DNA from: Spirochaetia bacterium
GTDB lineage: Bacteria; Spirochaetota; UBA4802; UBA5550
Length of the DNA: 64,000 nt
Direction of reading: 5' to 3'
Assembly: GCA_009885955.1 (NCBI GenBank)
Contig: VFJS01000003.1
Location: forward strand, 147,086 to 211,085
This document shows, piece by piece, positions 8,569 to 64,000 of this stretch (the stretch's first letter is position 1; each line of letters starts with the position of its first letter). The notes below the pieces were generated by a model, which was given only the letters and a program-made list of their open reading frames with translations, ran no database searches and was not told where the DNA came from. The position numbers and the translations under genes are program-made.

Positions 8569-8576
8569 TTAATATA

Positions 8577-21950: not shown

Positions 21951-22871
21951 TTATTGGGGGTTTCTTTTTTTCGTATAGCTCTCCCGTATCGCTGTATACT
22001 CCGGTCCCTTCTCTTTTTTATAGAAACAGAACCTGTTTTTTCCCTGGTCTTTTGCGTCATAGAGCGCGTCGTCGGCCCTGCACTGCATCTTTATGAAAAT
22101 ATCCTCAATCTCCTGGTCCACAATTTTTTTTCCGTTGTTGAAGATATATTCATATATTGAGGCTCCGGCGCTCACCGTCACCTGTAATTCCTTTCCGTCG
22201 TACATGACACAGGTTTTTCTTATTTTTTCATAGAGGTTGTTTAAAAATATTTTTGCGCCGTCCATGTCCGTGGATGGCAGTAGAACGTCCATTTCCTCCC
22301 CGCCGAAGCGTATGGCATAGTCTGTCGGCCTTGAATTCTCTTTTATAATATCTGCGATACGTTTCAGTACCCTGTCCCCTGCTTCATGGCTATACTTGTT
22401 GTTGAACAGGGAAAAATCGTCAATATCAAGCCTTATCAGGGTGATATGATAGGATGTCACTTTTCCGCCATAGTATATCCTGGACGCAGTCTTGATGATG
22501 TTTGTGAGATAGTCCTTTTTGTATTTTAATAAATTTGTCTTTTCATCAATATTGATTTTCTGCTCCATGAGACTCAGCTTGTCCACGATTGAGAAATAAT
22601 CGAGCTCCGATCTTCTCAAAAGTTCAACGATATCATCATCAATGGCATTGTGAACCAGGAGATGCGATAAGATCCGTATGTTCCGTATCTGGAATTCGTT
22701 AAGGTCTCTGCTGTCTTTTTTATTGTTCATTTTTTCCAATGGTATTTTTTTATTCTTCACCCGTATTTGTTTAACATCATTCAAAGCAAAAATGCAGGCG
22801 AAGATTTTATCCGGAATAATCCCCTGATCCTGGACTTTGACTGTTTCCTGAAATATATAAAAAGTAAACAA
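21951..22871 (-). CDS. GGDEF-domain diguanylate cyclase-like protein
   Basis: 'RLDIDDFSLFNNKYSHEAGDRVLKRIA...RFGGEEMDVLL'. The active-site-like GGEEM differs from canonical GG(D/E)EF. Confidence 0.75.
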   Translation of the reverse strand: MFTFYIFQETVKVQDQGIIPDKIFACIFALNDVKQIRVKNKKIPLEKMNNKKDSRDLNEFQIRNIRILSHLLVHNAIDDDIVELLRRSELDYFSIVDKLSLMEQKINIDEKTNLLKYKKDYLTNIIKTASRIYYGGKVTSYHITLIRLDIDDFSLFNNKYSHEAGDRVLKRIADIIKENSRPTDYAIRFGGEEMDVLLPSTDMDGAKIFLNNLYEKIRKTCVMYDGKELQVTVSAGASIYEYIFNNGKKIVDQEIEDIFIKMQCRADDALYDAKDQGKNRFCFYKKEKGPEYTAIRESYTKKRNPQ

Positions 22872-23022
22872 AAATATAAAATTTTATGATAGTTGTCAAT
22901 AAAAAAAGTGAAACCATGACTTCAGTTGGAAGGATTGAGTAATATCAAAAAATAAGATTTTTAAGCGCATAATGAAAAATTACAGGATACTGATGTAAAT
23001 ATTAATTAATATCTTTATTTAA

Positions 23023-23262
23023 GTGAAAATTCTGCCGAATTCAATATTGGTTATACAAATCTGTTCATGGAGGAACGGAATAACCATGGAGGTTGCTATG
23101 GATAATCTCATGAAAAAGGAGGATCGTGAGATAAAACCGGGTAATGGCAAGGCTGATCAGAAAAAGATTCTTGAATATAGAGAAAAGATTTCAAACAATA
23201 CTTATCTTGATCAAGCAATTTCTAAAATTGCCACTGATTTATCCCATTATCTTACAAAGTAA
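23023..23262 (+). CDS. FlgM-like anti-sigma-28 factor (tentative)
   Basis: C-terminal 'EKISNNTYLDQAISKIATDL' resembles the FlgM 'IANGTYKVDAEKIADKL' helix. The probable start is ATG 23086, after a GGAGGA RBS. No flagellar genes nearby. Confidence 0.35.
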   Translation: MKILPNSILVIQICSWRNGITMEVAMDNLMKKEDREIKPGNGKADQKKILEYREKISNNTYLDQAISKIATDLSHYLTK

Positions 23263-23335
23263 TGTTATTATCTTGATGTCATCATCAATTGTATAATTGA
23301 TGATTGATATTCTTGATCAAACCAAATAAAATAAT

Positions 23336-23390
23336 GGTCTGCCCCTTTTAATTTCAGGGAAATGATAAAGGGGCAGATCATTTTTTTGAT
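23336..23390 (+). terminator. Rho-independent terminator
   Basis: GGTCTGCCCCTTTT-loop-AAAGGGGCAGATC (12-bp stem) followed by ATTTTTTTGATTT. Confidence 0.75.
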
Positions 23391-23535
23391 TTAACATGGC
23401 CCTCATGCCTGTAATCGAATCAATACGTATCCACTCAAGGGAACCGCCTGTATCAGTTATTTAAGGCTCTATTAAAATTTATTATTGCGGATAATAAGAT
23501 GTTGACAGGGGAAAATAAAGTATCAATTTTTATTC

Positions 23536-24615
23536 ATGGTTGAAAAGAGTTCATATTTCGCAATAAGGAACGATAAAAAAATGAAGGTCATTTTCTTTGT
23601 CCTTTTTTTTATCATAACAGCCGGCATACTTTATATTTTCCAATATTTTTTCTGGCCATTTCTCTTCGCCCTGATCCTTTATATTGCTTTGAGGCCGGTT
23701 CAGGAAAAGCTCCTTGCCCATATGAGAAACAGGACATTGAGTACTATTGCAGTAATCGTAATTTTATTTATAATAATTATTGTCCCGTTTTTTTATCTGG
23801 TTATGAACCTCGCCAACCAGAGCTACCAGCTCTATAATATCATCCAGGAGAAGGTGGAGAAGGGCGATTTCAATGACATCGGGATAATTAAACAGGCAAT
23901 GGAATATTTCCAGATCCATAGCACCAATCTCATAAAAAAGGCGGCTGAATTTCTGGAGAAAACGGCTGTCACCGCATTCATGAACCTGACAAAACTGATA
24001 TCTTTCCAGATAAGTTTTACCATGAATTTTCTTTTCATGATTATGATCCTCTTCTTCCTCCTGAAAGACGGGCACAGGCTTGGAGGAGCTTTTTACAGAA
24101 TACTCCCTTTCCCCGACGATATTGAAAAGAAGATCGTTCTGAGGCTCAAAGATGTCATAAAGGTGCTTCTTGCCGGTAACCTTATCATCATGTCCCTCCA
24201 GGGCCTGGGCCTGGGCCTGGGATTTTTCTTAGCCGGCATTGACATGCCTCTTCTATGGGGGAGCTTTGCTGCTGTCCTGTCGCTCATCCCTGTTGTGGGG
24301 ACTACGCTCATCTGGCTCCCCGGCGCACTCTATCTTTTTTTCAAGGGTTATTATATAAGCGCCATATTTGTCGGGATCTGGTCAATGTTGTGGTACCTCC
24401 TTCTGGAAAATATCGTAAAACCTAAGATTTTCGGCAGGAGACTCAACTTTCATCCCATGGTTTTCTTTTTTCTTATTCTCGGAAGCATACAGGCTTTCGG
24501 CATCGCGGGGGTCATCGTCGGCCCGCTGCTCCTGACCCTGTTCTTCTCCTTATGGGAAATTTACAAGTTCATCAATGAATATGAGCTTATGGAGAAGGAT
24601 GAGGGGAGAAGATGA
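23536..24615 (+). CDS. AI-2E family transporter (PerM/YhhT, UPF0118)
   Basis: 8 TM helices. Characteristic 'FFWPFLFALILYIALRP', C-terminal conserved 'GIAGVIVGPLL'. Confidence 0.8.
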   Translation: MVEKSSYFAIRNDKKMKVIFFVLFFIITAGILYIFQYFFWPFLFALILYIALRPVQEKLLAHMRNRTLSTIAVIVILFIIIIVPFFYLVMNLANQSYQLYNIIQEKVEKGDFNDIGIIKQAMEYFQIHSTNLIKKAAEFLEKTAVTAFMNLTKLISFQISFTMNFLFMIMILFFLLKDGHRLGGAFYRILPFPDDIEKKIVLRLKDVIKVLLAGNLIIMSLQGLGLGLGFFLAGIDMPLLWGSFAAVLSLIPVVGTTLIWLPGALYLFFKGYYISAIFVGIWSMLWYLLLENIVKPKIFGRRLNFHPMVFFFLILGSIQAFGIAGVIVGPLLLTLFFSLWEIYKFINEYELMEKDEGRR

Positions 24616-39228: not shown

Positions 39229-42144
39229 TTATGCTTCAAATTCCAGGATACAGCTTGTGCCGTCACCCCTCTCAATTCTGAAAGTTCCATTTACCTGCCT
39301 GGCCAGGCTATCCACAAGTACAAGCCCGAAACCTTTTAAGTCATCAATTTGGTAGCCTTCAGGAATTCCGACTCCGTTATCATGAATTGTGAGTGATACC
39401 ATGTTGCCATTTTTTGATCCGATGATCCGGATTAATCCTTTCTTCCTGCCGGCAAAGGCATGTTTCATTATGTTCGTCAGCAATTCATTGACTATGATCC
39501 CCAGCGGGAAGATCAGCCTGGCATGGAGGATAATATCATCAAAACTTTTTTCAATTTTTATTTTTCCATGATCCGGGAACATGGATATAATTTCATCTGC
39601 CAGATCATTGAGATACTCGTTAATGGGTATTTCCCTGTAGTTGTCCGCGCGGTAGAGCTTGTCATAGAGGATTCCCATGCTCTGAATACGGCTCCTGGCT
39701 GTCTGGATCGATTGAAGCGCAGCATGGTCCATGATAGAATCTTCCTGCATCGAAAGTATGTTTTCAATGACATTCATGTTGTTTTTAATCCGGTGGTGCA
39801 CCTCTTTCAGCAGCATTTCCTTCTCATGAAGCAGGGCCAGGACCCTGTCTTCGGCAATTTTACGGCCGGCAATGTTTTCAACCATGGCAAAGTAGTAGAG
39901 GAAGTTTCCCCTGTTGTCCGCCATTTTGCTCACCGTAAGCGAGCCCCATACCAGGGCCCCGTCCTTTTTTATATACTGCTTTTCGGTATGATATATCGGT
40001 AATTCACCGAGGTAAAGTTTCCTGATTGATTCAATGTCCCTGTTTATCCGGTCGGGGAGTGTCACGTCCTTTATGGTGAGCCTGCACAGCTCCTCTTCAT
40101 CATAGCCGAGCATTTCGCAGTATGAATCGTTGACTTGCAGGAACCGGAGGTCAGCTCCCACAATACTCATTCCCATGGGGCTCCTTTCAAAGATATTCCT
40201 GAACTGCTCTTCGCTCTCACGGAGGAGCGCCTCGATTTTTTTTCTTTCTGTGATGTCCCGGATAAATCCCACAATGGAGCCGTTTTGACCGGGAAGGTGC
40301 CTGGCGCTTATCTCCACATCGTAGAGCGTCCCATCCTTTCGGCGGTGCCTGCTTTCAAATCTGTCACTGCCCATTGAAATGATTATTTGAATATGGTTCC
40401 TGGTATCTTTTCTGGTCTCAACTGCTTCCAGGTCATTAATGCTCATTTTCAACAGCTCATATTCACTGTATCCGCTCATTTTTGAGAAGGCTTCGTTCAC
40501 CTGCAGCAGCCCCCCCTTCATGTCCACCTGGAAGAAGCCGTCCATTGCGGATTGAATAAATGATCGGTTTTTATCCTCGCTCCAGCGGAGCACCTCCTCC
40601 ATGAGCCTTCTTTCAGTGATATCCATGACGCTTCCAAGGATCGAAACAGGGTTCCCATCGCTGCTTTTTAAAATTACCGCGTTCAGGGAAATCCAGTAGT
40701 GCATGCCGTCCTTTCTTACCGATTTCACTTCCCTGTTTCTCACATGCCCTTTTGCATTTAAATCAGCAATAAATGATACCCTGTCAACGGCGTCGGCATA
40801 GAGATTGCCGGCCGGCATGGCCATGAATTGCTCTATGTTTTCATAACCGGCCATCTGGGCAATGGCCGAGTTGACGCTTAAAAATTTTCCATCAAATGTG
40901 CTCTGGAAAATTCCTACGTTGATGTTTTCCACCAGTATACGGTATTTTTCTTCACTATCCCGGAGTGATATTTCCGCTCTCTTGCTTTCTGTAATGTCTT
41001 TGACGGCGCCTACCATTGAAAGAGAGCCTTCACTGCTCTTTTTCGGGTTTGCAAAAATTCTGATCCACCTCTCTGTACCTGATTTTCTTATTGATCTGCA
41101 CTCAAATGTTCCTGATTCATCGGACTGCAGCATTTTTTTCATAAATTCGGCAAATAAAGCCCTGTCACCGGGGTGAATGGTTTTATTCCACTCCTCTGGC
41201 CCCGGGATATCATCCACGGTCCGTCCAGTGGCCAGGGACATGTTATCCGAAGCCCACCTCAGTTTCAATCCGCCATCCGGCTGAATATCCACGACAAAAA
41301 TATAGTCCGTGGTAAGCTCGGATATGATTTTGGTCCTCCATTCGCTTTCCTTCAGCGCTTCTCCGGCCTTTATGCGATCGGTGACATCCCTGGCGAGCAC
41401 CACGAACCTTGTATTGCCGGAAATTCTATCTCTCTTTTCGGCTATAGACATTTCAAACCATTTTTTCCCATCAGGCAGATCAAGGGAGTAAACAGAGCCG
41501 GTGTGCCACCCCTTTTGTGCTGCATCGGCGAGGGCTTTGTCTATAACTTCAGCAGCATCGGGCGGCAGCACCTCGCTCATGCGCCTTCCCATGAATGTTT
41601 CCGGCGGCGCATAGAGGTTGCTGTATGTCGGAGCCCGGTAGTCATAGATGCGCCCCTCCCGGTCGACCTCGAACATCAGGTCGGGAATTGCAGCCAGGGT
41701 GGCCTTCATATCCGTGTCTGCCCGGATCAGCTTCTCCTCCCTCTCCTTCAGTCCGGTATGGGCATCGAAAAGTTCAAAGGCCATTTCGATTGATGACTGG
41801 AGCACAAAATTTCCCGAATTTTTTATGATGTATCCGTACCGTGTAATGTGGCGGACTTTTTCCACCATTTCCCGCTCTATATGGGAGGTGAGAAACACTA
41901 TGGGGAGACACCTCTTTTCAAGGATCCTCCTGGCAGCCTCGGTCCCGTCAATCCCCTTTCCCAGATCGATATCCATGAGTATGAGGCTGATAGAGAGGTC
42001 TGTGGAGGCAATGGTGACAGCCTTCTCCCCGGATTCCGTTGTAATCACTTCATATCCGAAACGTTTTATGGCTTTTGACTGGGCCATTGCTATGAACGGC
42101 TCATCTTCTACAAGGAGGATTGTTTTTTTTTCATCAGTTGTCAT
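39229..42144 (-). CDS. Multi-PAS sensor histidine kinase with N-terminal receiver domain (HisKA_2-type H-box)
   Basis: N-terminal REC (ILLVEDEPFIA...LILMDIDLGKGIDG), several PAS/PAC blocks, H-box 'EVHHRIKNNMNVIENIL', HATPase 'HDNGVGIP...GFGLVLVDSLA'. Confidence 0.85.
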   Translation of the reverse strand: MTTDEKKTILLVEDEPFIAMAQSKAIKRFGYEVITTESGEKAVTIASTDLSISLILMDIDLGKGIDGTEAARRILEKRCLPIVFLTSHIEREMVEKVRHITRYGYIIKNSGNFVLQSSIEMAFELFDAHTGLKEREEKLIRADTDMKATLAAIPDLMFEVDREGRIYDYRAPTYSNLYAPPETFMGRRMSEVLPPDAAEVIDKALADAAQKGWHTGSVYSLDLPDGKKWFEMSIAEKRDRISGNTRFVVLARDVTDRIKAGEALKESEWRTKIISELTTDYIFVVDIQPDGGLKLRWASDNMSLATGRTVDDIPGPEEWNKTIHPGDRALFAEFMKKMLQSDESGTFECRSIRKSGTERWIRIFANPKKSSEGSLSMVGAVKDITESKRAEISLRDSEEKYRILVENINVGIFQSTFDGKFLSVNSAIAQMAGYENIEQFMAMPAGNLYADAVDRVSFIADLNAKGHVRNREVKSVRKDGMHYWISLNAVILKSSDGNPVSILGSVMDITERRLMEEVLRWSEDKNRSFIQSAMDGFFQVDMKGGLLQVNEAFSKMSGYSEYELLKMSINDLEAVETRKDTRNHIQIIISMGSDRFESRHRRKDGTLYDVEISARHLPGQNGSIVGFIRDITERKKIEALLRESEEQFRNIFERSPMGMSIVGADLRFLQVNDSYCEMLGYDEEELCRLTIKDVTLPDRINRDIESIRKLYLGELPIYHTEKQYIKKDGALVWGSLTVSKMADNRGNFLYYFAMVENIAGRKIAEDRVLALLHEKEMLLKEVHHRIKNNMNVIENILSMQEDSIMDHAALQSIQTARSRIQSMGILYDKLYRADNYREIPINEYLNDLADEIISMFPDHGKIKIEKSFDDIILHARLIFPLGIIVNELLTNIMKHAFAGRKKGLIRIIGSKNGNMVSLTIHDNGVGIPEGYQIDDLKGFGLVLVDSLARQVNGTFRIERGDGTSCILEFEA

Positions 42145-42814
42145 AGTGTATACCTGGCCAGTATTCTGCCATAAAGTATCGAATTAATGGCAGAATCAAA
42201 TATTTTCCCCCATAACCGAAATATCTATTAATTCTTAGAAGTTGAGATTGATACGTATACTCTATTCATTGTTTTCAAATAGTCAATTACTTTTTAGAAG
42301 AAAATAAGGGATTCAGAAGGACGTGAATTAAAATTCGTCAAGTAAATTGGGAAATACTCCGGCATCCCTGTCAATTTAATAATTGCCCACATCTATTGCA
42401 TTCCGGCCCCCTAAAGTATGTTATTGAGCTCGCCAGAAAAATGAGACTTAATTTGACGCCATCTGAAAAAGTTTTATGGAAAAAATTGAAGAATAAAAAA
42501 TTGGTTGGAATATCTACTTTACGATTTACAAATGAAGGTAGTAATTCACAATATAAACTATGTTTTAGCTGATATTAAAAAGAATTTAATTTTATAACTA
42601 CGTTTCTTCAAGTCCCCCTTTGGGGGATTTAGGGGGCCTTTTTCGGATGGGTAATGGATAGCTTGTCAAGAGGGAGCAATAGAGTTATGGGGAAGGGTTC
42701 TATTTTTCCGAAAAATAATTTACACCCGGCCCGATGGAATTCATGTAACCTGTAAATATATTGACAAAAACCTTCACCGGGGAATATGGTGCTCAAAGAG
42801 ATGTTCATGCTCAG

Positions 42815-42886
42815 GCGCCTGTAGCTCAAAGGATAGAGCACTGGTCTCCGGAACCAGGTGTGCAGGTTCAATTCCTGCCAGGCGCA
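42815..42886 (+). tRNA. tRNA-Arg (anticodon CCG)
   Basis: Acceptor GCGCCTG/CAGGCGC, D-arm GCTC-AAAGGATA-GAGC, anticodon stem CTGGT/ACCAG with loop CTCCGGA, T-arm GCAGG-TTCAATT-CCTGC, discriminator A. Confidence 0.85.
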
Positions 42887-43016
42887 GATAATAGTAGTAT
42901 CGATTTTTTCCATTCACAATGGCAACAGTAAATTGCTTAAAAATTCTCGAATTGTTCTAGTCGATTGAATTACTTCATGATTGTATAAAAGTAACTTAAA
43001 AGAAATTGTTTTTTTT

Positions 43017-44834
43017 TCACGTAATTAAGTCAAATTCAAAAGTAACCTTTGTACCATGTTCCTGTTCAATTTTTATTCTGCCTTTTACTTCCTTTACCAG
43101 AAGATTGACAAGCATAGTGCCAAATCCTGATGATTCATTGATGTTACCCGTATTTGGATACCCTTTTCCGTTATCCTGAATGATAACTGTTACGTGCCCA
43201 TTTTTCTGTGCTGCGGTCACAGTTATTACCCCTTCTGCATCATCAGGAAAGGCATATTTCATAACATTTGTCAGCAGTTCATTAATAATAATTCCGAGAA
43301 GCTGTGTTGTTTTAGCATTAATAACAATATTTTGTATATTTTGTTCAGTCTGCACTGACCCGCTATTTGGGAAGTTACTGAGAATATGTTCAATCAGGGA
43401 AGGGAGATAATCTGCAAGATTTACCGCTGTAACATTTTCTGAACGGTAAATTTTATCATAGAGTATTGACATGCTGAGAACACGTTTTGCAGTATCTTCC
43501 AGGGCTTTGATTGCCAGAGGATCTTTCAGAGTATGTGTCTGAAGATTTAAAATTGCATGCACAGTGGTGAGGTTATTCTTCAGCCGGTGATGGACTTCTT
43601 TGAGAATGAGTTCTTTTTCGTTAAGCAGAGAATGTATTTTTTCTTCAGCTTTTTTTCTATCGGTTATGTCCATTGATATACCAATGATTCCGATTATTTC
43701 ACCTTCATCATTTACAAAGGGAATTTTACTCGTATTCACCCATTTAGTACCGGTTTTGGTTTCCCAGGGTTCTTCAATATTGATTTTCGGTTTACCTGAG
43801 TTTATCACCGATAGATCATCCTGATAATATTTTTCAGCAATCTCTTTAGGATAGAGGTCATAGAGGCTTTTATTTTCCAGTTCTGACTTCTCTTTTTCCT
43901 GTGCAGCAGCCATGAATTTGTTAACCATTATAAAATTATTATTTTTATCTTTATAGAAAATCAGTCCCGGGATATGATCAAGTATTGCTTCAAGCTGTAG
44001 GGATAGCTGTTTATACCTGGTCTCACTAATTTGAATTTTTGTATTTAATCTTGAAACTTCGGCTAACTGAAAATTTAAATCTGAGAATACCGTGGCATAG
44101 GGTTCTTCAATGCTGACAAGAACGATTGATCGATAGATAAAATAAAATGAGATAATTTTTAATAGATGCCCAAAAACATTTGTCAATCCATAATTATCGG
44201 TATAGAGCGTAAAGCAGAATTCACTCAGTATCGTGGTGATGATGGATGCTACTAAATATTTATACGTCTTTTCATTCACAGATTTTTTATATTTTATCAA
44301 AAACCCCAGGGAGAGGAATAATATAAAACATATAATATATTCGGATACTATTTTAAATTGTGTCTGTCCCTGTCCTTCTATGAAGCATAAAGGAAATATT
44401 TTAAAATAGAATACAGACAATAATGCAGAAGCGGTAATGCTGAAATATACGACAAAAATAACATTGGCATGCACTTTAAATTGCCGCTTGATAAATAGGG
44501 TGAATATCAATAAAGATATACTTTCTATTCCCCTGGCGCATATCCATAACTGATTCGCATAAAATATATCCGAACTGAAAATCATCATACCTTTATATGA
44601 TAAGGTATGGAAGAAATCAATGACGCCTACAAAGAGATAGACAACCCCTAAGAAGACAAAATGGTTTTGTCCGGTTTTATTTCTTGAAATCCACGCAATG
44701 ATAAATATACAGCTTGATATTACTACACTGAATAATTCGGCAAATCCGTGAAATAATAAATAATTATTTCTGCTGACAATGTACGATGCTGCGAGTATTA
44801 GAAGTAAGCCTGCATAAGATACATATTTACCCAT
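43017..44834 (-). CDS. Membrane-embedded sensor histidine kinase (multi-TM sensor + PAS + HisKA_2 + HATPase_c)
   Basis: ~7 N-terminal TM helices, PAS block, H-box 'EVHHRLKNNLTTVHAIL', HATPase 'QDNGKGYP...GFGTMLVNLL'. Confidence 0.8.
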   Translation of the reverse strand: MGKYVSYAGLLLILAASYIVSRNNYLLFHGFAELFSVVISSCIFIIAWISRNKTGQNHFVFLGVVYLFVGVIDFFHTLSYKGMMIFSSDIFYANQLWICARGIESISLLIFTLFIKRQFKVHANVIFVVYFSITASALLSVFYFKIFPLCFIEGQGQTQFKIVSEYIICFILFLSLGFLIKYKKSVNEKTYKYLVASIITTILSEFCFTLYTDNYGLTNVFGHLLKIISFYFIYRSIVLVSIEEPYATVFSDLNFQLAEVSRLNTKIQISETRYKQLSLQLEAILDHIPGLIFYKDKNNNFIMVNKFMAAAQEKEKSELENKSLYDLYPKEIAEKYYQDDLSVINSGKPKINIEEPWETKTGTKWVNTSKIPFVNDEGEIIGIIGISMDITDRKKAEEKIHSLLNEKELILKEVHHRLKNNLTTVHAILNLQTHTLKDPLAIKALEDTAKRVLSMSILYDKIYRSENVTAVNLADYLPSLIEHILSNFPNSGSVQTEQNIQNIVINAKTTQLLGIIINELLTNVMKYAFPDDAEGVITVTAAQKNGHVTVIIQDNGKGYPNTGNINESSGFGTMLVNLLVKEVKGRIKIEQEHGTKVTFEFDLIT

Positions 44835-56067: not shown

Positions 56068-56213
56068 GTATGCCTGCCTAGTGTTGCAAAATATAAATAT
56101 ATAATCCTTTCTGAAAAGGATTATATATTCTTTATTGAAAATTGCAAGAATAAAATTATGTCCCTCCGCTTGAAAAGCGGTTTTCTGTAAAAAATCATCA
56201 TGTTCAAGAATAG

Positions 56214-56315
56214 AGATAGGGAGATGTGGGGATAAGAAAATGTGATAGGGGGATGAGATAATAATTTAAATTTTTTTATTATCCCCATAATCTCTCTTTC
56301 TTCTCCCCCTATCTC
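56214..56315. promoter_or_regulatory. Inverted repeat with C/G tracts upstream of the csoR-family gene promoter (candidate operator)
   Basis: GAGATAGGGAGATGTGGGGATAA...GATAGGGGGAT...TTATCCCCATAATCTCTC..CTCCCCCTATCTC. Followed by TTGACA (56327-56332) -17- TATGAT (56350-56355) and a leader of under 20 nt. Confidence 0.5.
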
Positions 56316-56370
56316 CACAAAAAAGCTTGACATTCAACCCCTGTTCCTTTATGATACTCTTAGGGAGTAC

Positions 56371-56688
56371 ATGTATATGAATAAAAAGGATACACATGGC
56401 GTGAATGCTGAAAGGACGGCCCATCATTCTGGGGAGCTGAAGGATAACATACTCAAAAGGCTCGGCAGGATAGAGGGTCAGATACGCGGGATCTCGAGGA
56501 TGGTCAATGAGAATACCTACTGCAACGACGTGCTTCAGCAGATATCATCGGTTGAATCGGCGCTGGACGGTGTCAAGACCGTACTCCTCGAGGCCCACCT
56601 GAGGAGCTGCATCATTGAGCAGATCCGCGATGGGAAGGATGATGTCATGGATGAATTGATTGTAACCCTCAGGAAGTTCATGAGGTAG
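56371..56688 (+). CDS. CsoR/RcnR/FrmR-family metal-sensing transcriptional repressor
   Basis: 'LKRLGRIEGQIRGISRMVNENTYCNDVLQQISSVESALDGV...EAHLRSCI' with the C..H..C ligand pattern of DUF156. Confidence 0.8.
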   Translation: MYMNKKDTHGVNAERTAHHSGELKDNILKRLGRIEGQIRGISRMVNENTYCNDVLQQISSVESALDGVKTVLLEAHLRSCIIEQIRDGKDDVMDELIVTLRKFMR

Positions 56689-56835
56689 CGCGGGCCTGTT
56701 CATATTTCAACCCTTTCATTGATTCATATTTTTAAAAGATTTATCATGAATACATATATATTAAAATGTAACAATTTTTTGATTGACCTTTCATAATGTC
56801 AGGCCATGATGACTAATCTATAAAAGATTTGCCTT

Positions 56836-57273
56836 ATGATAAATATATATAATACTAAAATGAAGAGAAACATTTTAACGGCCGCACTGGTGAGCGTAAT
56901 TTTTGTCATATCCATGGGGCATCTCTGTTTCTGTGCTGCTGATTCCGGGATTTCAGAGAAGAAAAACATTCATCACGGCTGTTCCCAATCTGCTCAGAAG
57001 CAGGAGACAAAGAATAATTTTGTTCTTAAAAATTCATGCTGCTGCGGTGAAGGAAAATATGAAATTCAGCTTATCACCAGTCCATCAGGCTCATACTCCC
57101 TTGAGAATAAACAGAAATTTCATGATTCATTTTTTATTTTTTCAGACAGGAATATATTATTATCAGGTACTAAAATACAAAATACCGGAATTTTTAACAT
57201 AAAGTATTATCTCTCATTACGATCGATATTCACTGACGACCTCCATATCAAGCATTCTTCTTTTCTGATTTAA
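56836..57273 (+). CDS. Small secreted Cys-rich protein (CxC, CCCG motifs)
   Basis: Signal peptide, then 'HLCFCAAD', 'HHGCSQS', 'NSCCCGEG'. Paralogous CC(C)G motif in the 58698 gene. Confidence 0.35.
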   Translation: MINIYNTKMKRNILTAALVSVIFVISMGHLCFCAADSGISEKKNIHHGCSQSAQKQETKNNFVLKNSCCCGEGKYEIQLITSPSGSYSLENKQKFHDSFFIFSDRNILLSGTKIQNTGIFNIKYYLSLRSIFTDDLHIKHSSFLI

Positions 57274-57446
57274 ATTCACCTGTAAGATCTATTTATTCTT
57301 TTACATTAGTGTCATGAAGGCATTCATTTCTTTATGGTATGTATTTGCCATATTCAATCAGCCGTGCACTGAAAAGGAGAGTACAACTGATGATAAGAAA
57401 AAATGTTCAGGTTGATTAAAAATTTAATTTTATCTGCGAGAAATAA

Positions 57447-58001
57447 ATGAAAAACTTTAATAAATTAGTGCCGCTGGCAATTCTTCTTTTTGTCCTGGCA
57501 CCCAGTTCAAAAATACTCATGGCACAGCATTCTCACGGCGGGAGCGGTCGTGGAAGTAATAATATGTCGGGTCACGGGAATCATGTCATATCTGATCAGA
57601 AAAACAAGGATGATGTAGATTCCGGTGATGTAAAAATGGTTGTTGTAGATAATATCCAGGCTGCCTTTGAAATCTACAGCAAAGCAAAATATAATGAAAT
57701 GGCGGATTCGATGAAAGTCAGAAAGGTCCATGCAGATAATAATTCCAGCCATTTTATCATCATAAGCCTTATGAACAGGCCGGACATGAAGCAGATAAAA
57801 AATGCTTCAATTGAAGTTGAACTCATGTCTCCCTATACGGGAAGCGCAAAGAAGAAGGCCTATGCAATGGAAGGGGGCGGCATGTTCCATTATGCCGTAG
57901 ACTTTACGATGAATACCAGGGGGACCTATAAGGTGAGCGCAGTGATTAATATCGACGGGAAAGATTTAAAAGCCGAAACGGATTTTACCATAAAAAAATA
58001 A
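57447..58001 (+). CDS. Secreted His-rich protein, putative periplasmic metal-binding
   Basis: Signal peptide, then 'AQHSHGGSGRGSNNMSGHGNH'. C-terminal beta-rich domain with 'MEGGGMFHY'. Confidence 0.4.
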   Translation: MKNFNKLVPLAILLFVLAPSSKILMAQHSHGGSGRGSNNMSGHGNHVISDQKNKDDVDSGDVKMVVVDNIQAAFEIYSKAKYNEMADSMKVRKVHADNNSSHFIIISLMNRPDMKQIKNASIEVELMSPYTGSAKKKAYAMEGGGMFHYAVDFTMNTRGTYKVSAVINIDGKDLKAETDFTIKK

Positions 58002-58123
58002 AAAGATAACTGGGTTCAATTGATACCGGTACATGTCAGATAACTATAAAGTCCTGAGTTGAGTGTTTTAATATATTGATGTATTGAATAAACGTTTTAA
58101 ACCAGAAAAAAAGGAGAAAAAAA

Positions 58124-58651
58124 ATGAGAATCAAATCATGTTTGCTTGTCGCTGCTTTTATTGCGGGAATGAGTGGGAATCTAATGGCTTATGAAGATAT
58201 TCAACATCATCCGAAGTGCAAATATTCCGGGATGGACAGGGAGAAATTCGCCCATAGCAGAATTCTCGTGGTATATGACGATGGGTCGTCTGTGGGGACC
58301 GGAAGCCTCAGGTGCGCTTCAATCGATCTGGCAATCAATTTTACCAGGAAAGTCAAATCCATGAAAGCCGGCGACTATAAGACAAAGAACCTTATTGATG
58401 CCGGGAAAGCGTACTGGGTAATCGGAGGTAAGGTAAAAGGGGTGATGACAAAAAATCCCAAGTGGGCATTTGAAAAAAAAGAGGATGCCCAGGCCTTCAT
58501 TAATGAAAATGGAGGGACTCTTACCTCCTTTGACACAGCATTAAAGACCACATATAATGATATGATGAGCGACACCTCCTATCTTCATGATATGATGAAA
58601 GGAATGAAGGGCAATAATGGCGGTCATGGAGATTCACACCATGGTCATTGA
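58124..58651 (+). CDS. NosL-family-like copper-binding protein with His-rich C-terminal tail
   Basis: Matches P. stutzeri NosL recalled from memory: 'LIDAGKAYWVIGGKVKGVMT...FEKKEDAQAFINENGGTLTSFDTALK' versus NosL 'LIDATSAYYVVGTSLKGAMG...FAEEQDAKALAGMHGGRVLRFEEIDQALL'. His-rich end 'GGHGDSHHGH'. The N-terminal CxxC of NosL is reduced to a single Cys. Confidence 0.5.
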   Translation: MRIKSCLLVAAFIAGMSGNLMAYEDIQHHPKCKYSGMDREKFAHSRILVVYDDGSSVGTGSLRCASIDLAINFTRKVKSMKAGDYKTKNLIDAGKAYWVIGGKVKGVMTKNPKWAFEKKEDAQAFINENGGTLTSFDTALKTTYNDMMSDTSYLHDMMKGMKGNNGGHGDSHHGH

Positions 58652-58697
58652 AAGCCCGGTAAAGACTGATCATAAATATAGATAAGGGGGTTATTCC

Positions 58698-58931
58698 ATG
58701 CGTAAGTACATAATTATAACCGGAGTTGTTGGATTAATCGGGCTGGCATTCGTCTTGTCAGATTTCAAGAGTTCCGTAATGTCAAAAGGCATTGACAGGG
58801 AAAGATTGCAGGGTGTCTGTCCTGGAGCAGGCGGATCTCTGAAAAGCGGCAATGAAAACGGATCAGAGGGAAATAACGGGACGGGTGCTTCATGTTGCGG
58901 GAAGGGGAATCAGTGCTGTAACAGGCGATGA
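58698..58931 (+). CDS. Small membrane-anchored Cys-rich protein (SCCGKGNQCC)
   Basis: N-terminal TM helix. C-terminal 'GVCPGAGG...GASCCGKGNQCCNRR'. Confidence 0.35.
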   Translation: MRKYIIITGVVGLIGLAFVLSDFKSSVMSKGIDRERLQGVCPGAGGSLKSGNENGSEGNNGTGASCCGKGNQCCNRR

Positions 58932-59143
58932 ATGGAGAGAAGGTGATGAGTATGGCTATTTCATTCTGGGCAGCGCCAAAAATGACCGCCGGGCATCTTA
59001 TGTTTTCTGCGGTTATGACCGCTTATATGTTGATAGGGATACAATTTGAGGAACGGGACCTGGTAAAAATTTTTGGTGATGATTACAGGAATTACCGGGA
59101 GCGGGTGCCGATGCTGATCCCAGTGACGGGAAAAAACAAATGA
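58928..59143 (+). pseudogene. Isolated C-terminal fragment of an isoprenylcysteine carboxyl methyltransferase (ICMT/PEMT)-family protein
   Basis: 71 aa: 'GIQFEERDLVKIFGDDYRNYRERVPMLIP' matches the ICMT C-terminal EE..L...FG..Y..Y...VP motif. The upstream in-frame codon is TAA at 58919, so the ~120-aa membrane N-terminus is absent. Confidence 0.45.
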
Positions 59144-59200
59144 AAATTTTTATTCGAGTATATTTTGTAAATAATATATGAAACAAGAAGGAGCCGTTAT

Positions 59201-60175
59201 ATGCGTATAAAATTTCAAATGTCTTATCTTATTAAGATAGTGCCTGACATTCTCTGTGGAATTCTACTCGGCTTTTTCATACTCCACCCTGTGGCCATGC
59301 TCATTACAGGTTCGTCATTTTATGAGCATGGGGAGGGCCATTTTTCCTCAAAGTTTATTTATTTTTTTCTCAGCCCAATGAGCATATATTTTACTCTTTT
59401 GGGTATGTGCATTGGACTTTTGAGCGGAGTTTTTCGCAGCGTATTGAGAGTCCAGAATGTTCAATTAAATGAAAGAATAACTGAACGCAACTCTCTGTTG
59501 CGCATACTGTCGCACGACCTGAATAATAGTGTGGGTGCGGCATCGGGATACGTTCGATTGCTTGGGTACAAAGAAGTTCCTTTTTCTAAATCAAGAGAAT
59601 TTATGTGTATTGCAACTTCTCTAAAACAGGCAATTGCTTTGATGGAAACCGCGAAGAATATTATAGCCCTTCAATCCGGAAAGCTTACATTGGCTATTGA
59701 TAAATCTGACATGATTGCATTAGTAAAAGATGTACTCTTGCTTTTTGAATTTAAGTGTTCTTCAAGGGGTATTGTTATTGATTTGAAAATCCCATCCGAT
59801 GAAACATGTTTTGCGTATGTTGACCCTGTTATTTTTCAGAACTCTATTCTTGGCAATATTCTGAGCAACGCAGTAAAATTTTCAAAATCGAATGAGAGTA
59901 TTGAGATTGTCATTTTTAATGAAAGTTCCAAAGTTATTGTTTCAGTAACTAATACAGGGCCGGAAATTCCAGTGAAAAAAATAGAGAATCTTTTTCAAGA
60001 GGGGGAAAATATTTCATCCGCCGGCGTAACCGGGGAGCGTGGAACTGGTTTCGGACTTCCACTGGCATATACATTCACAAAAATGATGGGTGGGGAAATA
60101 TGGGCCGAATGCGTGAGAACGGAGCGAAAAGATTTATATCGAAATACATTTACCGTGCAGATTTCAGCCGCATGA
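59201..60175 (+). CDS. Membrane sensor histidine kinase (HisKA + HATPase_c)
   Basis: Two N-terminal TM helices, H-box 'LSHDLNNSVGAASGYVRLL', N-box 'GNILSNAVKFS', G2 'GTGFGLPLAYTF'. Confidence 0.8.
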   Translation: MRIKFQMSYLIKIVPDILCGILLGFFILHPVAMLITGSSFYEHGEGHFSSKFIYFFLSPMSIYFTLLGMCIGLLSGVFRSVLRVQNVQLNERITERNSLLRILSHDLNNSVGAASGYVRLLGYKEVPFSKSREFMCIATSLKQAIALMETAKNIIALQSGKLTLAIDKSDMIALVKDVLLLFEFKCSSRGIVIDLKIPSDETCFAYVDPVIFQNSILGNILSNAVKFSKSNESIEIVIFNESSKVIVSVTNTGPEIPVKKIENLFQEGENISSAGVTGERGTGFGLPLAYTFTKMMGGEIWAECVRTERKDLYRNTFTVQISAA

Positions 60176-60437
60176 AATTGCCAGTGTTTTCGTTAGAATT
60201 GTTTAGGAAACCGTGTGCTATGTCAATAAAGTTAGACTTCATAACCGGACTTTCTGTTCAAACTTTTTTTTCAACAGGGGGTAAGCAAGGAGTAAATCAA
60301 TTTTTGATCAAAAAAACAACAGGGATAACGAAAATGATTCATGTTATAAATATTAATACAGATACAATATAACTTATCTCAGCCAAGAAATATGATTACG
60401 TTATGGTAAGGAATATTAAAGAATAGGGGAAAAGAAA

Positions 60438-61160
60438 ATGATAAAATTGAAATACTTAACAGCTGTTATATTCATAATGGGGCTTGTTCACATGGTTTAT
60501 GCAGAAGAGCTGCATACATTCCATGATTCGGATCCGTTTCCGCATTCGTTCTTACTGCCTATGGCGATACCCGGCCCTCCCTGGTCTTATAACGTGCAGC
60601 TAACCCCGTTCCTTCAGCAAAAAGACGGTGAGAATAAACTTGATGCCGGCGCTCATGCGAGCCTGGGACTCTTCGACTGGGGCGGCATTCATTTCAGGAG
60701 TCCTGGAGCGCGCACCGCGCCAACTGCTGAAATCATAGCAATGGTTGGACTTGTTAATGATTCTGCAAAACAGAACGGCCTTTCGCTGCTTGCAATTGCA
60801 GGAATACCCACCAAGCAGCCTGCCGATGGCCACCATGCGGAATTATCATACATACTGGGGGTCTCGTGGCAGCTGACCCCTGCTGACTGGTTCAGGTGGA
60901 CCGCAAACCTGCATTACGATTTCACCGAAAAACACATGATACCTGAGAGTGGAATCCTTATCAGGTTATTCCCGAAATTTTTCGCGGGGCTGGAGGGTCG
61001 CGCAACCATTGGTAAAGAAAAGATAGTGTATCTGCTGCCGTCTTTGAAATATAACCTTATTGAGAACCACTTTATAGGTATCGGTTATGAAGCTCCGGTT
61101 AAGAGAGACAGGGAATACGACTGGAGGATATATTTCCAGATCGAACACGGGAATCATTAA
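60438..61160 (+). CDS. Secreted hypothetical protein (possible outer-membrane protein)
   Basis: Signal peptide 'AVIFIMGLVHMVYA'. Beta-rich alternating pattern, no domain recognised. Confidence 0.4.
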   Translation: MIKLKYLTAVIFIMGLVHMVYAEELHTFHDSDPFPHSFLLPMAIPGPPWSYNVQLTPFLQQKDGENKLDAGAHASLGLFDWGGIHFRSPGARTAPTAEIIAMVGLVNDSAKQNGLSLLAIAGIPTKQPADGHHAELSYILGVSWQLTPADWFRWTANLHYDFTEKHMIPESGILIRLFPKFFAGLEGRATIGKEKIVYLLPSLKYNLIENHFIGIGYEAPVKRDREYDWRIYFQIEHGNH

Positions 61161-61222
61161 AAATTTTCGCATACAGTTAAGTTTAAAGTAACATTATTGG
61201 ATGAAAAGCGACTCTATGTACA

Positions 61223-61981
61223 ATGATTAATAACATCACAACAGTAATATTGATCGATAGTGGATTTTTCGCTATGGTTCGTCCAAAAGCAGCGATTGTA
61301 AATTTCAAGAGGCATAACATGAACGTGATCCCTGATGAGGAAAAAAAGTATTATGACCTGACCAGGAAGGCCTTCGATTTCCTGGCGCCTTTCTACGACG
61401 CGGCGGTGTTCCCTTTTTCCGGACTGAGGGATAGGGTTGCTGAATTAACGGGTGCGGGTAATGCCGCAAAGATACTCGACGTGGCTACAGGGACAGGCAA
61501 ACAGGCTTTCGCATTCGCGAAAAAGGGATACGCGGTGACCGGTGTTGATATCACCGAATCCATGCTCTCTGTCGCTAGAAGGAAAAATAAATTTCCCAAC
61601 GTGAAATTCGAAATCGCGGACGCGACGAAGCTTGAATTTGATTCCGGCAGTTTTGATGTTGTGAGTATATCTTTCGCCCTGCACGATATGCCTTTATCGA
61701 TAAGGGAAAGGGTACTGGCTGAAATGGCCCGTGTTACGAAACCGGAAGGAAACATTGTGATCGTGGATTACTTCCTTCCGAAGAATAAAATTGGAAAATT
61801 TCTGATCTATCATATTATCAGTTTATATGAGGGAGAATATTACAAAAAATTCATTAAAAGCGATCTTCGTGATTTCATCGAAAATTCCGGTATTTATATT
61901 AAAGAGGAAGTGCCTGCTTTGTTCGGCGCAGCAAGGATTATAAAAGGAGTTAAAAATCAAAGAGCCCGGGAAAACAATTAA
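61223..61981 (+). CDS. Class I SAM-dependent methyltransferase (UbiE/COQ5-like)
   Basis: 'ILDVATGTGKQAFAFAKKGYAVTGVDITESML' motif I/post-I, 'FDVVSISFALHDM' motif II. Alternative start at 61313. Confidence 0.75.
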   Translation: MINNITTVILIDSGFFAMVRPKAAIVNFKRHNMNVIPDEEKKYYDLTRKAFDFLAPFYDAAVFPFSGLRDRVAELTGAGNAAKILDVATGTGKQAFAFAKKGYAVTGVDITESMLSVARRKNKFPNVKFEIADATKLEFDSGSFDVVSISFALHDMPLSIRERVLAEMARVTKPEGNIVIVDYFLPKNKIGKFLIYHIISLYEGEYYKKFIKSDLRDFIENSGIYIKEEVPALFGAARIIKGVKNQRARENN

Positions 61982-62104
61982 ATTTTTGAGTGAGATATTT
62001 TTGACAATCTTTTTGCAGCTGAATATATTCAAGTATAATGAAAGTATAATGGACTATAAGCTTATACGTAATTAAAATTTAACATAACAAAAGGAGAAAT
62101 AGTT

Positions 62105-62500
62105 ATGAAAAAAATTCTGGTAATGACTTTGATGGTTTTTGGTATTACAGTGACTGCCGTTTTTTCGCAAATGGGCGGTAGCATGGGTTCTCATCAGTCC
62201 TCAAAGATGATGGGCGGCCAGATGATGAATCAGCAGATGATGCGTGATATGTCCGGAATGATGGGACGAATGAACGACATGATGCAGAAGATGTCCGTCG
62301 GGATGGATCAAAAGCAGGGCATGGACCATTCCAGGATGAAGGACATGTCGAAGATGATGAATGATATGTCCGTAACCATGAAAGAAATGTCCGGGCAGAT
62401 GGACAAGGGAACGGCAGACCCGGCCATGATGACAAAAATGCAGGAGCGGATGAAAACCATGAATCAGATGATGGATAATATGCAGAAAGGCGATAAATAA
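62105..62500 (+). CDS. Secreted methionine-rich protein (MxxM/MMxxM repeats), putative Cu(I)/Ag(I)-binding
   Basis: Signal peptide, then a mature region of roughly 30% Met: 'MMGGQMMNQQMMRDMSGMMGRMNDMMQKM...'. Confidence 0.6.
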   Translation: MKKILVMTLMVFGITVTAVFSQMGGSMGSHQSSKMMGGQMMNQQMMRDMSGMMGRMNDMMQKMSVGMDQKQGMDHSRMKDMSKMMNDMSVTMKEMSGQMDKGTADPAMMTKMQERMKTMNQMMDNMQKGDK

Positions 62501-62545
62501 AATGAAGCATGGAGTAAAAGACTATTTTTTTCGGGCAGGATGTAA

Positions 62546-63337
62546 ATGAGACCAAAAAAAATGAAGATGTTTTCGGGGACCGGTTTTCCGGATCACAGAA
62601 TTTTTAGATTGGCCGTTTATGTTCTGTTCATTTTTTTGTTCAGCGTCATATTGGTTCCTTTGGCTGCTTCGGCAAATATGGGACGCGGGTATATTGACCT
62701 GGGCGGAGGTTATAAAACCGGTGATTTCGGCACTCCAACAACATCGAACCTCTATTATCTCTCATCGATCATTGGATATGGTGAGCCCCGGTACGATATC
62801 AGTGTTAATATACCTTATCTATTAATCATGAATAAAATTAACAGCCAAAATACTTCTGAGTACGGCCTTGGAGATATCATCCTGAGGGGAGGCAGTTCAA
62901 TAGTCCCGGAAGGGGAATCCGGTTTTTCTCTCTATTGGGCTTTGGCAGTCAAGCTGCCGACTGCCGACAATACTAAGGGTCTTGGTACCGGGGAAGCTGA
63001 TTATGGTTCATTCGTAAAGATGAATCAGGTACTAATGAAATTAAAATTTTCGCTTGTAGGCGGGTATATAAAAATTGGCGACACAGCTGATATTAATTAC
63101 AATGATATTTATCTCTATGGATTTGAAATATCAAGGGTCTTCGGGAGCACCGATATTTCAGTATCTTTTGTTGAAAGGAGATCCGCAATCCCTGGCAATC
63201 AAAATGCCCGGGAGATTACCATAGGAATTTTCCATGTATTAAACATGGATTACGCGGTTAGAGGGAGCGCCTTTAAAGGCTTGAACAAAAGCAGTCCGGA
63301 TTTCGGCATTGATCTGGGTATCGTAAAATGGTTTTAA
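62546..63337 (+). CDS. Putative outer-membrane beta-barrel protein
   Basis: Signal peptide, alternating amphipathic beta-strand pattern, C-terminal 'GIVKWF' ending in Phe (OMP signature). Confidence 0.5.
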   Translation: MRPKKMKMFSGTGFPDHRIFRLAVYVLFIFLFSVILVPLAASANMGRGYIDLGGGYKTGDFGTPTTSNLYYLSSIIGYGEPRYDISVNIPYLLIMNKINSQNTSEYGLGDIILRGGSSIVPEGESGFSLYWALAVKLPTADNTKGLGTGEADYGSFVKMNQVLMKLKFSLVGGYIKIGDTADINYNDIYLYGFEISRVFGSTDISVSFVERRSAIPGNQNAREITIGIFHVLNMDYAVRGSAFKGLNKSSPDFGIDLGIVKWF

Positions 63338-63540: not shown

Positions 63541-64000
63541 GATGAAAAAGAAAATCATACTCGCAACATTTACATTTCTATTCGCAGCCTCATTGCTGCA
63601 TGCTGAACCCGATACCCTGATAAAATCAGAAATTGAAAATGGAGGCTACATAGCCCCGGTATTGAAATTCTCTCAGATCAACAAGGAACTTGGGATATTC
63701 GGCGGTTGGAAACTCGGCTGGATAATAAACCACTCATTTTCGATTGGTTTTAGCGGAAACATGCTATTCAACAGCCCGGATTCAATAAAAGATGAGAACA
63801 ACAACAGGATATACATGGGATACATGGGTGGTCTGATCGAATACATCATAAACCCGGATAAACTGGTCCACTTTTCATTATCAGCGCTCATCGGAGGGGG
63901 CGGAACGGGGACGAATACCAATACCAATACCAATACCAGTGGCAACAGCAATGGTTACATGATGGGAGGAAACTTTAATCGTTTTTTCGTAGCGGAGCCG
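63541..64000 (+). CDS. Secreted hypothetical protein, 3'-truncated by the window end
   Basis: ATG with signal peptide 'ILATFTFLFAASLLHA'. Open to the end of the window. Gly/Asn/Thr-rich region. Confidence 0.4.

Follow-up and report, generated by a model that had tools for sequence, protein, structure and literature searches.

The 64,000-nucleotide (nt) stretch of DNA analysed here, called the window below, comes from a Spirochaetia bacterium (assembly GCA_009885955.1, contig VFJS01000003.1, positions 147,086 to 211,085), and its 3' end carries a cluster of genes for secreted and membrane proteins behind a repressor gene of the CsoR family. On the plus strand, the window between 56.2 and 64 kb is a run of co-directional open reading frames (ORFs), eleven of which are found where a first-pass annotation, made from the letters alone, had placed them. 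The gene string runs into a copper/silver efflux pump beyond the window, and we therefore read it as most likely a bacterial copper-defence locus that is built from very rare, uncharacterised parts, not as a new kind of system. The features from the regulator to the mini-protein p77 are listed below; here and throughout, signal peptides were assigned by eye only.

56213 to 56316, no strand assigned: inverted repeat, imperfect and nested, about 104 bp long, whose left arm has G4-5 boxes and whose right arm has C4-5 boxes
56327 to 56355, plus strand: sigma-70-like promoter TTGACA-17-TATGAT for csoR, 11 of 12 consensus matches
56355 to 56369, no strand assigned: candidate CsoR operator TACTCTTAGGGAGTA, TAC-N9-GTA, between the -10 hexamer and the ATG
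56377 to 56688, plus strand: csoR-family repressor gene, 103 amino acids (PF02583), with a Cys-His-Cys ligand set, a Tyr before the first Cys and an RLGR motif
56836 to 57273, plus strand: p145, predicted secreted Cys-rich protein of 145 amino acids with HHGC and CCCG motifs
57447 to 58001, plus strand: p184, secreted protein with a His-rich disordered N-terminus and a beta-sandwich, invariant motif MEGGGMFHYA
58124 to 58651, plus strand: NosL-like protein of 175 amino acids (PF05573) with a His-rich tail, not a lipoprotein
58530 to 58558, plus strand: sigma-70 consensus without mismatch, TTGACA-17-TATAAT, which lies in the 3' coding end of the NosL-like gene and 140 nt before p77
58698 to 58931, plus strand: p77, 77 amino acids with an N-terminal transmembrane helix, a Gly/Asn/Ser-rich linker, CPG and SCCG-x4-CC-x-RR

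The product of csoR matches the CsoR/RcnR family (PF02583) with an E value of 7e-28 and 97.3 bits (cutoff 22.8), in agreement with its first assignment. Its best solved relatives are the Cu(I)-sensing CsoRs of Geobacillus (PDB ID 4M1P) and Streptomyces (PDB ID 4ADZ), and its Cys, His and Cys residues align with the Cu(I) ligands in both structures; the YC pair and the ...DEL sequence are present as well. The protein also carries the RLxR motif and the conserved Gln that have been implicated in CsoR DNA binding (PMC3902906). By this fingerprint its effector is probably, though not certainly, Cu(I).

The gene callers place the csoR start at the ATG at 56377, and the ORF is readable from 56371 too. 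The ATG sits 9 nt 3' of an AGGGAG ribosome-binding site, so that the mRNA would have a short leader and would not be leaderless; the promoter proposed earlier is present as the site TTGACA-17-TATGAT, while its description as near-leaderless is not borne out. The -10 hexamer (at its end), the expected start of transcription and the ribosome-binding site all overlap with the candidate box TACTCTTAGGGAGTA. It is the sole exact TACTC-N5-GAGTA of the 64-kb window and the sole TAC-N9-GTA among the intergenic regions of the cluster, with a single GGG tract and not two clear G/C tracts. The TAC-N9-GTA dyad is reported to be conserved and required in CsoR operators (PMC3902906), and the presence of this canonical dyad at the csoR promoter is why we take TACTCTTAGGGAGTA, and not the large repeat upstream, as the likely operator. 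Autoregulation of csoR through this box is likely.

The large repeat lies between the divergent promoters of csoR and a GMC-oxidoreductase gene, upstream of the -35 hexamer, and had been described as a C/G-tract palindrome with a possible CsoR operator architecture. The repeat exists, with arms that are 77-78% complementary; it is imperfect and weakly non-random, folding modestly better than shuffled sequences (z -2.2; 6 of 200 shuffles equal it). Inside it lie three of the window's four GATAGGGGGA-like boxes, whose window-wide count is within chance, and its G5 box shows no enrichment across the window. The sequence TTATCCCCATAA within the repeat resembles the single-tract "type 1" sites of the CsoR family. 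As a CsoR operator the repeat was ruled out because of its position upstream of the -35 hexamer, its tract order, which runs from a G-tract to a C-tract across an AT-rich centre of about 30 bp, and the canonical dyad at the csoR promoter; it differs in this from known CsoR sites, and neither architecture nor position fits. Matches of the repeat to plant miRNA precursors in Rfam (56206-56328; MIR408 with 34 bits, gathering threshold 64) are far below threshold and were rejected, being an artefact of its long purine/pyrimidine hairpin.

The gene for p145 looks weak by itself, with a GC content of 0.34 and no ribosome-binding site. The sole other match in the protein search is a full-length paralog, 79% identical and located on the same contig about 10 kb downstream. 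The 145-codon frame is intact in both copies, and of their 30 differences only 1 falls within the 50-residue Cys core, compared with 19 in the next segment of 42 residues; such uneven divergence hints at gene conversion or at diversification of a local kind. In three independent runs the short contigs end at 56812-56814 and the next contig begins at 57246, and these breaks at both edges of p145 identify the segment as a repeat. The two copies also share identical stretches, including an upstream promoter-like site, TTGACC-16-CATGAT. The proposal that p145 and p77 are paralogous mini-proteins does not hold, as the two share a CCGxG pentapeptide only (pairwise E value of 0.24).

The search for p184 found 7 homologs among 5.8 billion protein clusters, and across the family the motif MEGGGMFHYA and other Met and Glu positions do not vary. 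Three of the homologs directly adjoin cusC-cusB-cusA, namely in a second metagenome (L009), in a metagenome-assembled genome of Leptospirales (L010) and in the same organism (contig L008), where a fourth family member follows just past cusA and a pseudouridine-synthase gene. A scan of the GTDB genomes with the p184 alignment gave one locus. A CusCBA exporter is found in every informative context of the family, and a cusF gene is absent from the cusCBA operons beside the p184 relatives (L008, L009 and L010).

The AlphaFold model of p184, built from the family alignment, is disordered in the His-rich N-terminus, and for residues 61-180 the predicted local distance difference test (pLDDT) has 10-residue block means of 76-97. 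By its predicted fold p184 matches CrdA and P19, two copper proteins of the periplasm, with 9-18% identity in the structural alignments. CrdA is encoded beside a resistance-nodulation-division (RND) pump (PMC9182242). At the level of sequence families p184 stays below threshold for the YtkA-like family (PF13115; 17.1 bits, threshold 25.9, with 23.8 bits for the best family member, that of L010), for DUF4426 (17.1 bits, threshold 25) and for FixH. No Pfam or NCBIfam match to the CrdA/CopC or P19/FetP families was obtained, and tblastn against plasmids returned nothing. There is likewise no family match to CusF and no CusF chain among the listed fold matches, leaving the resemblance to CusF in gene position only. 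We infer that p184 is a periplasmic accessory protein of the CrdA/CusF type outside all described families, and a candidate periplasmic Cu(I)/Ag(I) binder.

The NosL-like protein matches PF05573 with an E value of 2e-11 and 44.5 bits (cutoff 24), over profile positions 63-124 of 131 only, and with a two-sequence profile the NosL chains in the PDB give E values of 4e-5 to 6e-3. In this region, M108 aligns with the Cu ligand Met109 of A. cycloclastes NosL. The N-terminus yields no HMMER alignment to NosL, and the PDB sequence search gave nothing significant for it. It carries the motif C-K-Y-S-G-M (C32, S35 and M37), compared with the canonical C-x-x-C-x-M, and this motif together with a C-x3-D motif matches the spacing of the NosL Zn/Cu site. 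The strictly conserved Cu ligands of NosL are Cys62, Met64 and Met145 in S. denitrificans numbering (PMC8457098). The protein has no lipobox by inspection and is likely cleaved after LMA. The NosL domain reported earlier was found again, the tail being His-rich (GGHGDSHHGH) and not the poly-His tail of that report. The JGI metagenome scan with the NosL alignment returned no relatives, and tblastn of the NosL-like protein against plasmids led to a canonical nos cluster only.

The homolog search for p77 gave a single hit among 1.84 billion representatives (full HMMER search, E value of 1.5e-5), which keeps the transmembrane helix, CPG and SCCG-x4-CC-x-RR. It is encoded at locus L011 (positions 1-2352, metagenome run ERR10755943) directly downstream of a NosL-like gene (63% identical, with the same C-K-Y-S-G-M motif), and L011 is the sole related locus for the two genes. 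The pair is thus kept across 40-60% divergence, and since the pairing recurs in a distant metagenome, it is a conserved unit and p77 a real gene. The perfect sigma-70 consensus at 58530-58558 is not conserved in L011. It is an attractive idea that p77 could supply the missing thiolate to the NosL-like chaperone.

The pump beyond the window was reached by contig overlap. Contig L001 runs 2.8 kb past the window, and its tail equals window positions 56783-56812, the 30-mer that precedes p145. The head of contig L008 equals window positions 57246-57275, the 30-mer that ends p145, and L008 diverges right after the stop codon. The overlap lies at L001 9524-9572 and L008 1-30, which puts the segment at a window equivalent of about 66.8-78.4 kb; the 408,100-bp NCBI contig that carries the window proteins carries all L008 proteins too. 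The order deduced from these overlaps would be csoR, p145, p184, NosL-like gene, p77, the genes up to p203, a ThiI-like gene, an HD protein gene, the p145 paralog, a DUF2318/FtsX/ABC trio, the p184 paralog, cusC, cusB, cusA, the pseudouridine-synthase gene and a third p184 paralog. This puts the cusCBA operon about 7 kb beyond the final gene in the annotated cluster, accompanied by paralogs of both p145 and p184, which reinforces the copper reading of the core.

The pump encoded in L008 scores 996 bits to E. coli CusA compared with 474 bits to ZneA and keeps the M573/M623/M672 triad, clearly indicating a CusA ortholog with the three-Met Cu(I)/Ag(I) site. The operon also includes an OEP gene and encodes a CusB-type adaptor that contains an HMBD domain. 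The trio in front of the L008 p184 paralog consists of DUF2318 (FtrD-like), FtsX and ABC genes. A GGGTAC-N13-GTACCC-like inverted repeat, GGTGGGTACTATCTGATATTGATACCCCAT, is located at L008 11165-11195, 35-60 nt before the start of the minus-strand third p184 paralog; its G and C tracts are outermost, which is not the canonical CsoR arrangement, and it could be a regulator site.

The second half of the cluster, from p71 to p203, contains the following features:

58928 to 59143, plus strand: p71, truncated C-terminal remnant of an MddA/ICMT-type methyltransferase, whose ATG overlaps the p77 stop codon (ATGA)
59201 to 60175, plus strand: orphan sensor histidine kinase (HATPase_c) with two membrane segments and a short loop containing His and Glu
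60438 to 61160, plus strand: p240, predicted secreted protein with 13 His, no family assignment
61223 to 61981, plus strand: class I S-adenosylmethionine methyltransferase, UbiE/MenG-like, true start probably downstream of 61223
62001 to 62029, plus strand: promoter-like site TTGACA-17-TATATT upstream of the Met131 gene, 11 of 12 matches
62105 to 62500, plus strand: Met131, secreted Met-rich protein of 131 amino acids with 2 His and no Cys
62546 to 63337, plus strand: p263, outer-membrane beta-barrel of the MetA-like "transporter" family (PF13557), ending in ...VKWF (aromatic)
63542 to 64000, continuing to about 64153 beyond the window, plus strand: ORF for p203, predicted secreted, resembling an outer-membrane protein, with an (Asn-Thr)n stretch and the end ...AGIF

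Most of the assignments that had been made for this half stand. The 71-residue p71 matches NCBIfam NF045656 (MddA) with an E value of 5e-25 and 88 bits (cutoff 270), over profile positions 180-238 of 238 only, so the earlier label of an ICMT fragment is apt; with about 180 N-terminal residues gone, it is a remnant and not an enzyme. The sensor kinase has a HATPase_c domain (E value of 2e-16), a weak HisKA match (E value of 0.025) and an SHDLNN box, and no response regulator for it was found in the cluster or the flanking contigs. The methyltransferase noted earlier is UbiE-like. For p240, labelled OMP-like in the first-pass annotation, we found no family match, no relatives in the JGI metagenome scan, no tblastn plasmid match and no significant PDB match; its single-sequence AlphaFold model has a pLDDT of 33.

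Met131 contains 27.5% Met overall and 33 Met in 110 residues (30%) after the predicted signal peptide, the value reported in the first-pass annotation. In the mature form, the Met residues are spaced i+3/i+4 with hardly any other hydrophobic residues, and the gene has a strong ribosome-binding site and a GC content at third codon positions (GC3) of 0.66. Searches with Met131 gave no Pfam family, PDB or tblastn plasmid match, so that of the three proteins singled out earlier for database searches, p145 led to a paralog, p77 to one homolog and Met131 to neither family nor structure. The next gene does encode an outer-membrane beta-barrel: p263 matches PF13557 with 29.9 bits (threshold 22), its tblastn matches on plasmids are distant homologs annotated as "transporter" without a consistent metal context, and its PDB sequence search returned nothing significant. 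No family or homolog was detected for p203; its (Asn-Thr)n stretch is encoded by the hexanucleotide repeat AATACC, 4.2 copies at window positions 63914-63938, a tract that is possibly prone to slippage. The small proteins have no known non-metal function, and none of them apart from p71 has an annotated function at all. A copper link for Met131, p240, the kinase and the barrels is suggested by composition and position only.

The cluster has a GC content of 0.40 and the whole window one of 0.45; other low-GC stretches of the window are 8000-10000, 22000-24000 and 42000-44000 (0.32-0.36). The 5' neighbour of the cluster is the divergent GMC/cholesterol-oxidase-like gene, whose predicted promoter and 5' leader are overlapped by a perfect 15-bp inverted repeat, AATATATAATCCTTT / AAAGGATTATATATT, with a 4-nt loop at 56096-56129; it may serve as an operator or form a hairpin in the leader, with no relation to csoR. 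Elsewhere the window encodes unrelated housekeeping and signalling proteins such as DnaK, a molybdopterin oxidoreductase, PAS/MASE3 kinases and an acyl-CoA dehydrogenase. The window holds no nos genes and no P-type ATPase, as had been noted: no ORF is long enough for NosZ or such an ATPase, each ORF of at least 600 amino acids being something else. A cuproenzyme gene was found neither in the window nor in the flanking contigs, and family scans of the window proteins showed no sulfurtransferase, persulfide dioxygenase or sulfide:quinone oxidoreductase (SQR) genes.

No intrinsic terminator is predicted in the plus-strand intergenic regions, and the three plus-strand predictions within the cluster all lie inside coding sequence. 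The 262-nt gap between the kinase and p240 (window positions 60100-60372) contains only a weak ORF of 66-90 amino acids that was called inconsistently (66 amino acids in L001, 50 in L002); it is probably non-coding and may hold regulatory DNA for p240. Short contigs identical to the window were found in six sequencing runs. The window proteins that were looked up are all on the 408,100-bp NCBI contig, and at 90% clustering each is a singleton, with the exception of Met131, whose exact sequence is absent from the collection.

Taking the two halves together, on balance we consider it probable that the locus is a mosaic envelope set for Cu(I)/Ag(I) handling and not a single operon. A copper/silver role is supported as the best reading for csoR, p184, the NosL-like protein and p77. 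Beside the observed family assignments, ligand conservation, gene neighbourhoods, fold similarity and cusCBA linkage, we infer metal binding, copper regulation and a hand-over to the pump as follows. The CsoR-type repressor probably shuts its own promoter through the TAC-N9-GTA box over the transcription start and would leave the DNA when cytoplasmic Cu(I) rises. The core of four secreted or membrane-anchored proteins with soft-metal ligands (p145, p184, the NosL-like chaperone and p77) would bind Cu(I)/Ag(I) in the periplasm and hand it on to the CusCBA pump, the p184 family filling a CusF/CrdA-like accessory role. The p71-p203 block would be a variable add-on with its own promoter-like sites, in which, judged by composition only, Met131 might soak up Cu(I)/Ag(I) through its Met residues and the barrel might provide the way out across the outer membrane, as if the Met/His-rich N-terminal region and the barrel of PcoB had been split into two genes. 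A bolder version, in which the locus is a novel periplasmic Cu(I)/Ag(I) relay of three undescribed components, where the p184 family replaces CusF at CusCBA pumps, the NosL variant that has lost its bridging Cys takes thiolate ligands in trans from p77 as a two-protein chaperone, and Met131 and the barrel act as a thioether-only sponge and exit, seems rather unlikely to us.

Several observations weigh against this picture. In the NosL-like protein and its L011 homolog, Ser stands, as judged by motif spacing, in place of the strictly conserved bridging Cys (the Cys62 position). The neighbours of the pair in L011 are a divergently transcribed gene for a sulfate-binding protein and one for a ThiI/MnmA-like ATPase of the PP-loop type that has several Cys motifs, with no copper genes, and a sulfur link of the pair is possible from these neighbours. 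The DUF2318/FtsX/ABC trio of L008 resembles the accessory genes of P19-type iron uptake. The CsoR-type box was found once, with none before the other cluster genes or in the cusCBA segment, and every contig available from the organism is identical in the regulatory DNA. The intergenic gaps of 122-262 nt and the internal promoter-like sites, one of them a perfect consensus, argue against a single transcript. The p71-p203 segment is missing from L011, where p77 is followed after 6 nt by the ThiI-like gene, whose 72% identical counterpart here lies 5.4 kb further on; no direct repeats or scars were found at the segment ends, which makes gain here and loss elsewhere equally possible. Finally, p240, Met131, p263 and the kinase have no support for copper from context or homology.

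These points bear on how the locus could be read otherwise. The first-pass annotation had proposed a periplasmic Cu(I) module; the copper reading has held for the core, strengthened by the pump, and the single coherent CsoR-controlled module has not. That all eleven genes form one CsoR-repressed operon, as a self-contained periplasmic Cu(I)-sequestration module, is in keeping with their common direction, the lack of a predicted intergenic plus-strand terminator and the soft-metal ligand composition along the whole cluster; we nevertheless hold it to be improbable, given the single CsoR-type box, the sigma-70 sites at 58530-58558 (perfect) and 62001-62029 (11 of 12), gaps of up to 262 nt, and a p71-p203 block that is missing from L011 and begins with a truncated gene. 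With an efflux pump nearby, the set is also not self-contained. Similarly improbable is a reading with another effector, in which the regulator senses Ni(II)/Co(II) like InrS, or for example persulfide, and the His-rich proteins are secreted for nickel/cobalt or a different stress and not for copper. Some doubt about the effector comes from H17 of the csoR product (103-residue numbering), which aligns with His21 of the nickel sensor InrS, with the same spacing to Cys, His and Cys, and the fingerprint also fits H-C-H-C. InrS scores 55 bits, compared with 70 and 61 bits for the two best Cu-CsoRs. CsoR-family members also control non-copper regulons, one that governs sulfur oxidation likewise using TAC/GTA dyads (PMC10318464), and p184, the NosL-like tail and p240 are His-rich, while NosL-p77 stands beside sulfur-related genes in L011. 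However, the nearest structural relatives are Cu(I)-CsoRs, the Tyr before the first Cys is found in Cu-CsoRs where InrS has Pro, the pumps by the p184 relatives are CusA-type with the Met triad and not Czc/Cnr-type, and sites dominated by Met and Cys point to Cu(I)/Ag(I); none of the sulfurtransferase, persulfide dioxygenase and SQR genes is present among the window proteins.

The core could instead serve copper supply: the NosL-like protein, p77 and p184 would load a cuproenzyme of the periplasm or membrane with Cu(I), in the way that NosL supplies N2O reductase. NosL itself is a chaperone dedicated to Cu(I), and its homologs away from nos clusters may have a broader use (PMC8457098); P19/FtrA-like folds act in metal uptake, and the DUF2318/FtsX/ABC trio lies 5' of the L008 p184 paralog. 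We give this little credence, as no cuproenzyme gene was found in the window or flanking contigs and a CusCBA exporter stands in each informative p184-family context; furthermore, CsoR-type regulators de-repress at excess copper, which suits detoxification. The slimmest chance goes to the possibility that only csoR, and perhaps p184, is metal-related and the rest are unrelated envelope genes or partly non-coding DNA. Some genes would fit such a description, as p145 is of low GC content (0.34), without a ribosome-binding site and on a repeat, p71 is a gene remnant, p240, Met131 and p203 lack homologs or families, and the distant p263 homologs show no consistent metal context. Against this, p77 has stayed together with its NosL partner at 40-60% divergence, the 145-codon frame is intact in both p145 copies with 1 change in the 50-residue Cys core and 19 in the 42 residues next to it, the cusCBA segment begins with paralogs of both p145 and p184, and for Met131 there are a strong ribosome-binding site, a GC3 of 0.66 and a predicted signal peptide.

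Periplasmic copper handling is well understood only in a few model bacteria, and the main value of the locus lies in its new candidate periplasmic copper-binding proteins, which are small enough to express. If the copper-defence reading holds, they would add a new CusCBA accessory family, a NosL-type chaperone with a tiny Cys-rich membrane partner, and a very Met-rich secreted protein. The locus also illustrates that a window edge can hide a key partner, here an efflux pump just outside, and that genes strung together in one direction may form a mosaic rather than an operon.

Compared with known systems, the regulator is closest to CsoR of M. tuberculosis, B. subtilis, Geobacillus (4M1P) and S. 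lividans (4ADZ), which it resembles in family, Cys-His-Cys ligands, Tyr, RLxR motif, Gln and the autoregulatory position of the TAC-N9-GTA dyad. It differs in that the downstream genes encode secreted binders and not the usual copZ/copA pair, the box has a GGG tract only, and the N-terminal His aligns with the extra ligand of InrS. The NosL-like protein is homologous to NosL (PDB IDs 7OG7, 7ZNQ and 2HPU) in the C-terminal domain, where M108 corresponds to Met145 of S. denitrificans and Met109 of A. cycloclastes; the spacing of the N-terminal Cys, Met, Cys and Asp is as expected, and the His-rich tail is like that of P. stutzeri NosL. Unlike NosL, it has no lipobox or nearby nos genes, has Ser for the bridging Cys as judged by motif spacing, and is paired with a CC-x4-CC mini-protein in both known loci.

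The p184 protein shares with H. pylori CrdA/CopC and with P19/FetP/FtrA the periplasmic location and conserved Met, His and Glu residues, and CrdA too is encoded beside an RND pump; p184 differs by the MEGGGMFHYA motif, the disordered His-rich N-terminal extension and the lack of sequence-family membership. Like CusF, it is a small periplasmic protein with Met/His ligands, and it sits at the accessory position by a cusCBA operon that lacks cusF, whereas its predicted fold is an Ig-like sandwich and CusF is a small beta-barrel of unlike fold. The p71 remnant matches the last 59 profile positions of MddA/ICMT, with the rest of the enzyme gone. SilE and PcoE have conserved MxxH/HxxM motifs and 10 conserved His (PMC5008109), and Met131 is likewise secreted, of low complexity, rich in soft ligands and compatible with helical spacing; however, it has 33 Met and 2 His, no MxxH and no sequence similarity, compared with 10 His and 10-15 Met in SilE/PcoE. 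The Met131 gene is directly followed by the barrel gene, an arrangement like the Met/His-rich N-terminus fused to the barrel in PcoB (PMC12509749), although the barrel here belongs to a different family (PF13557).

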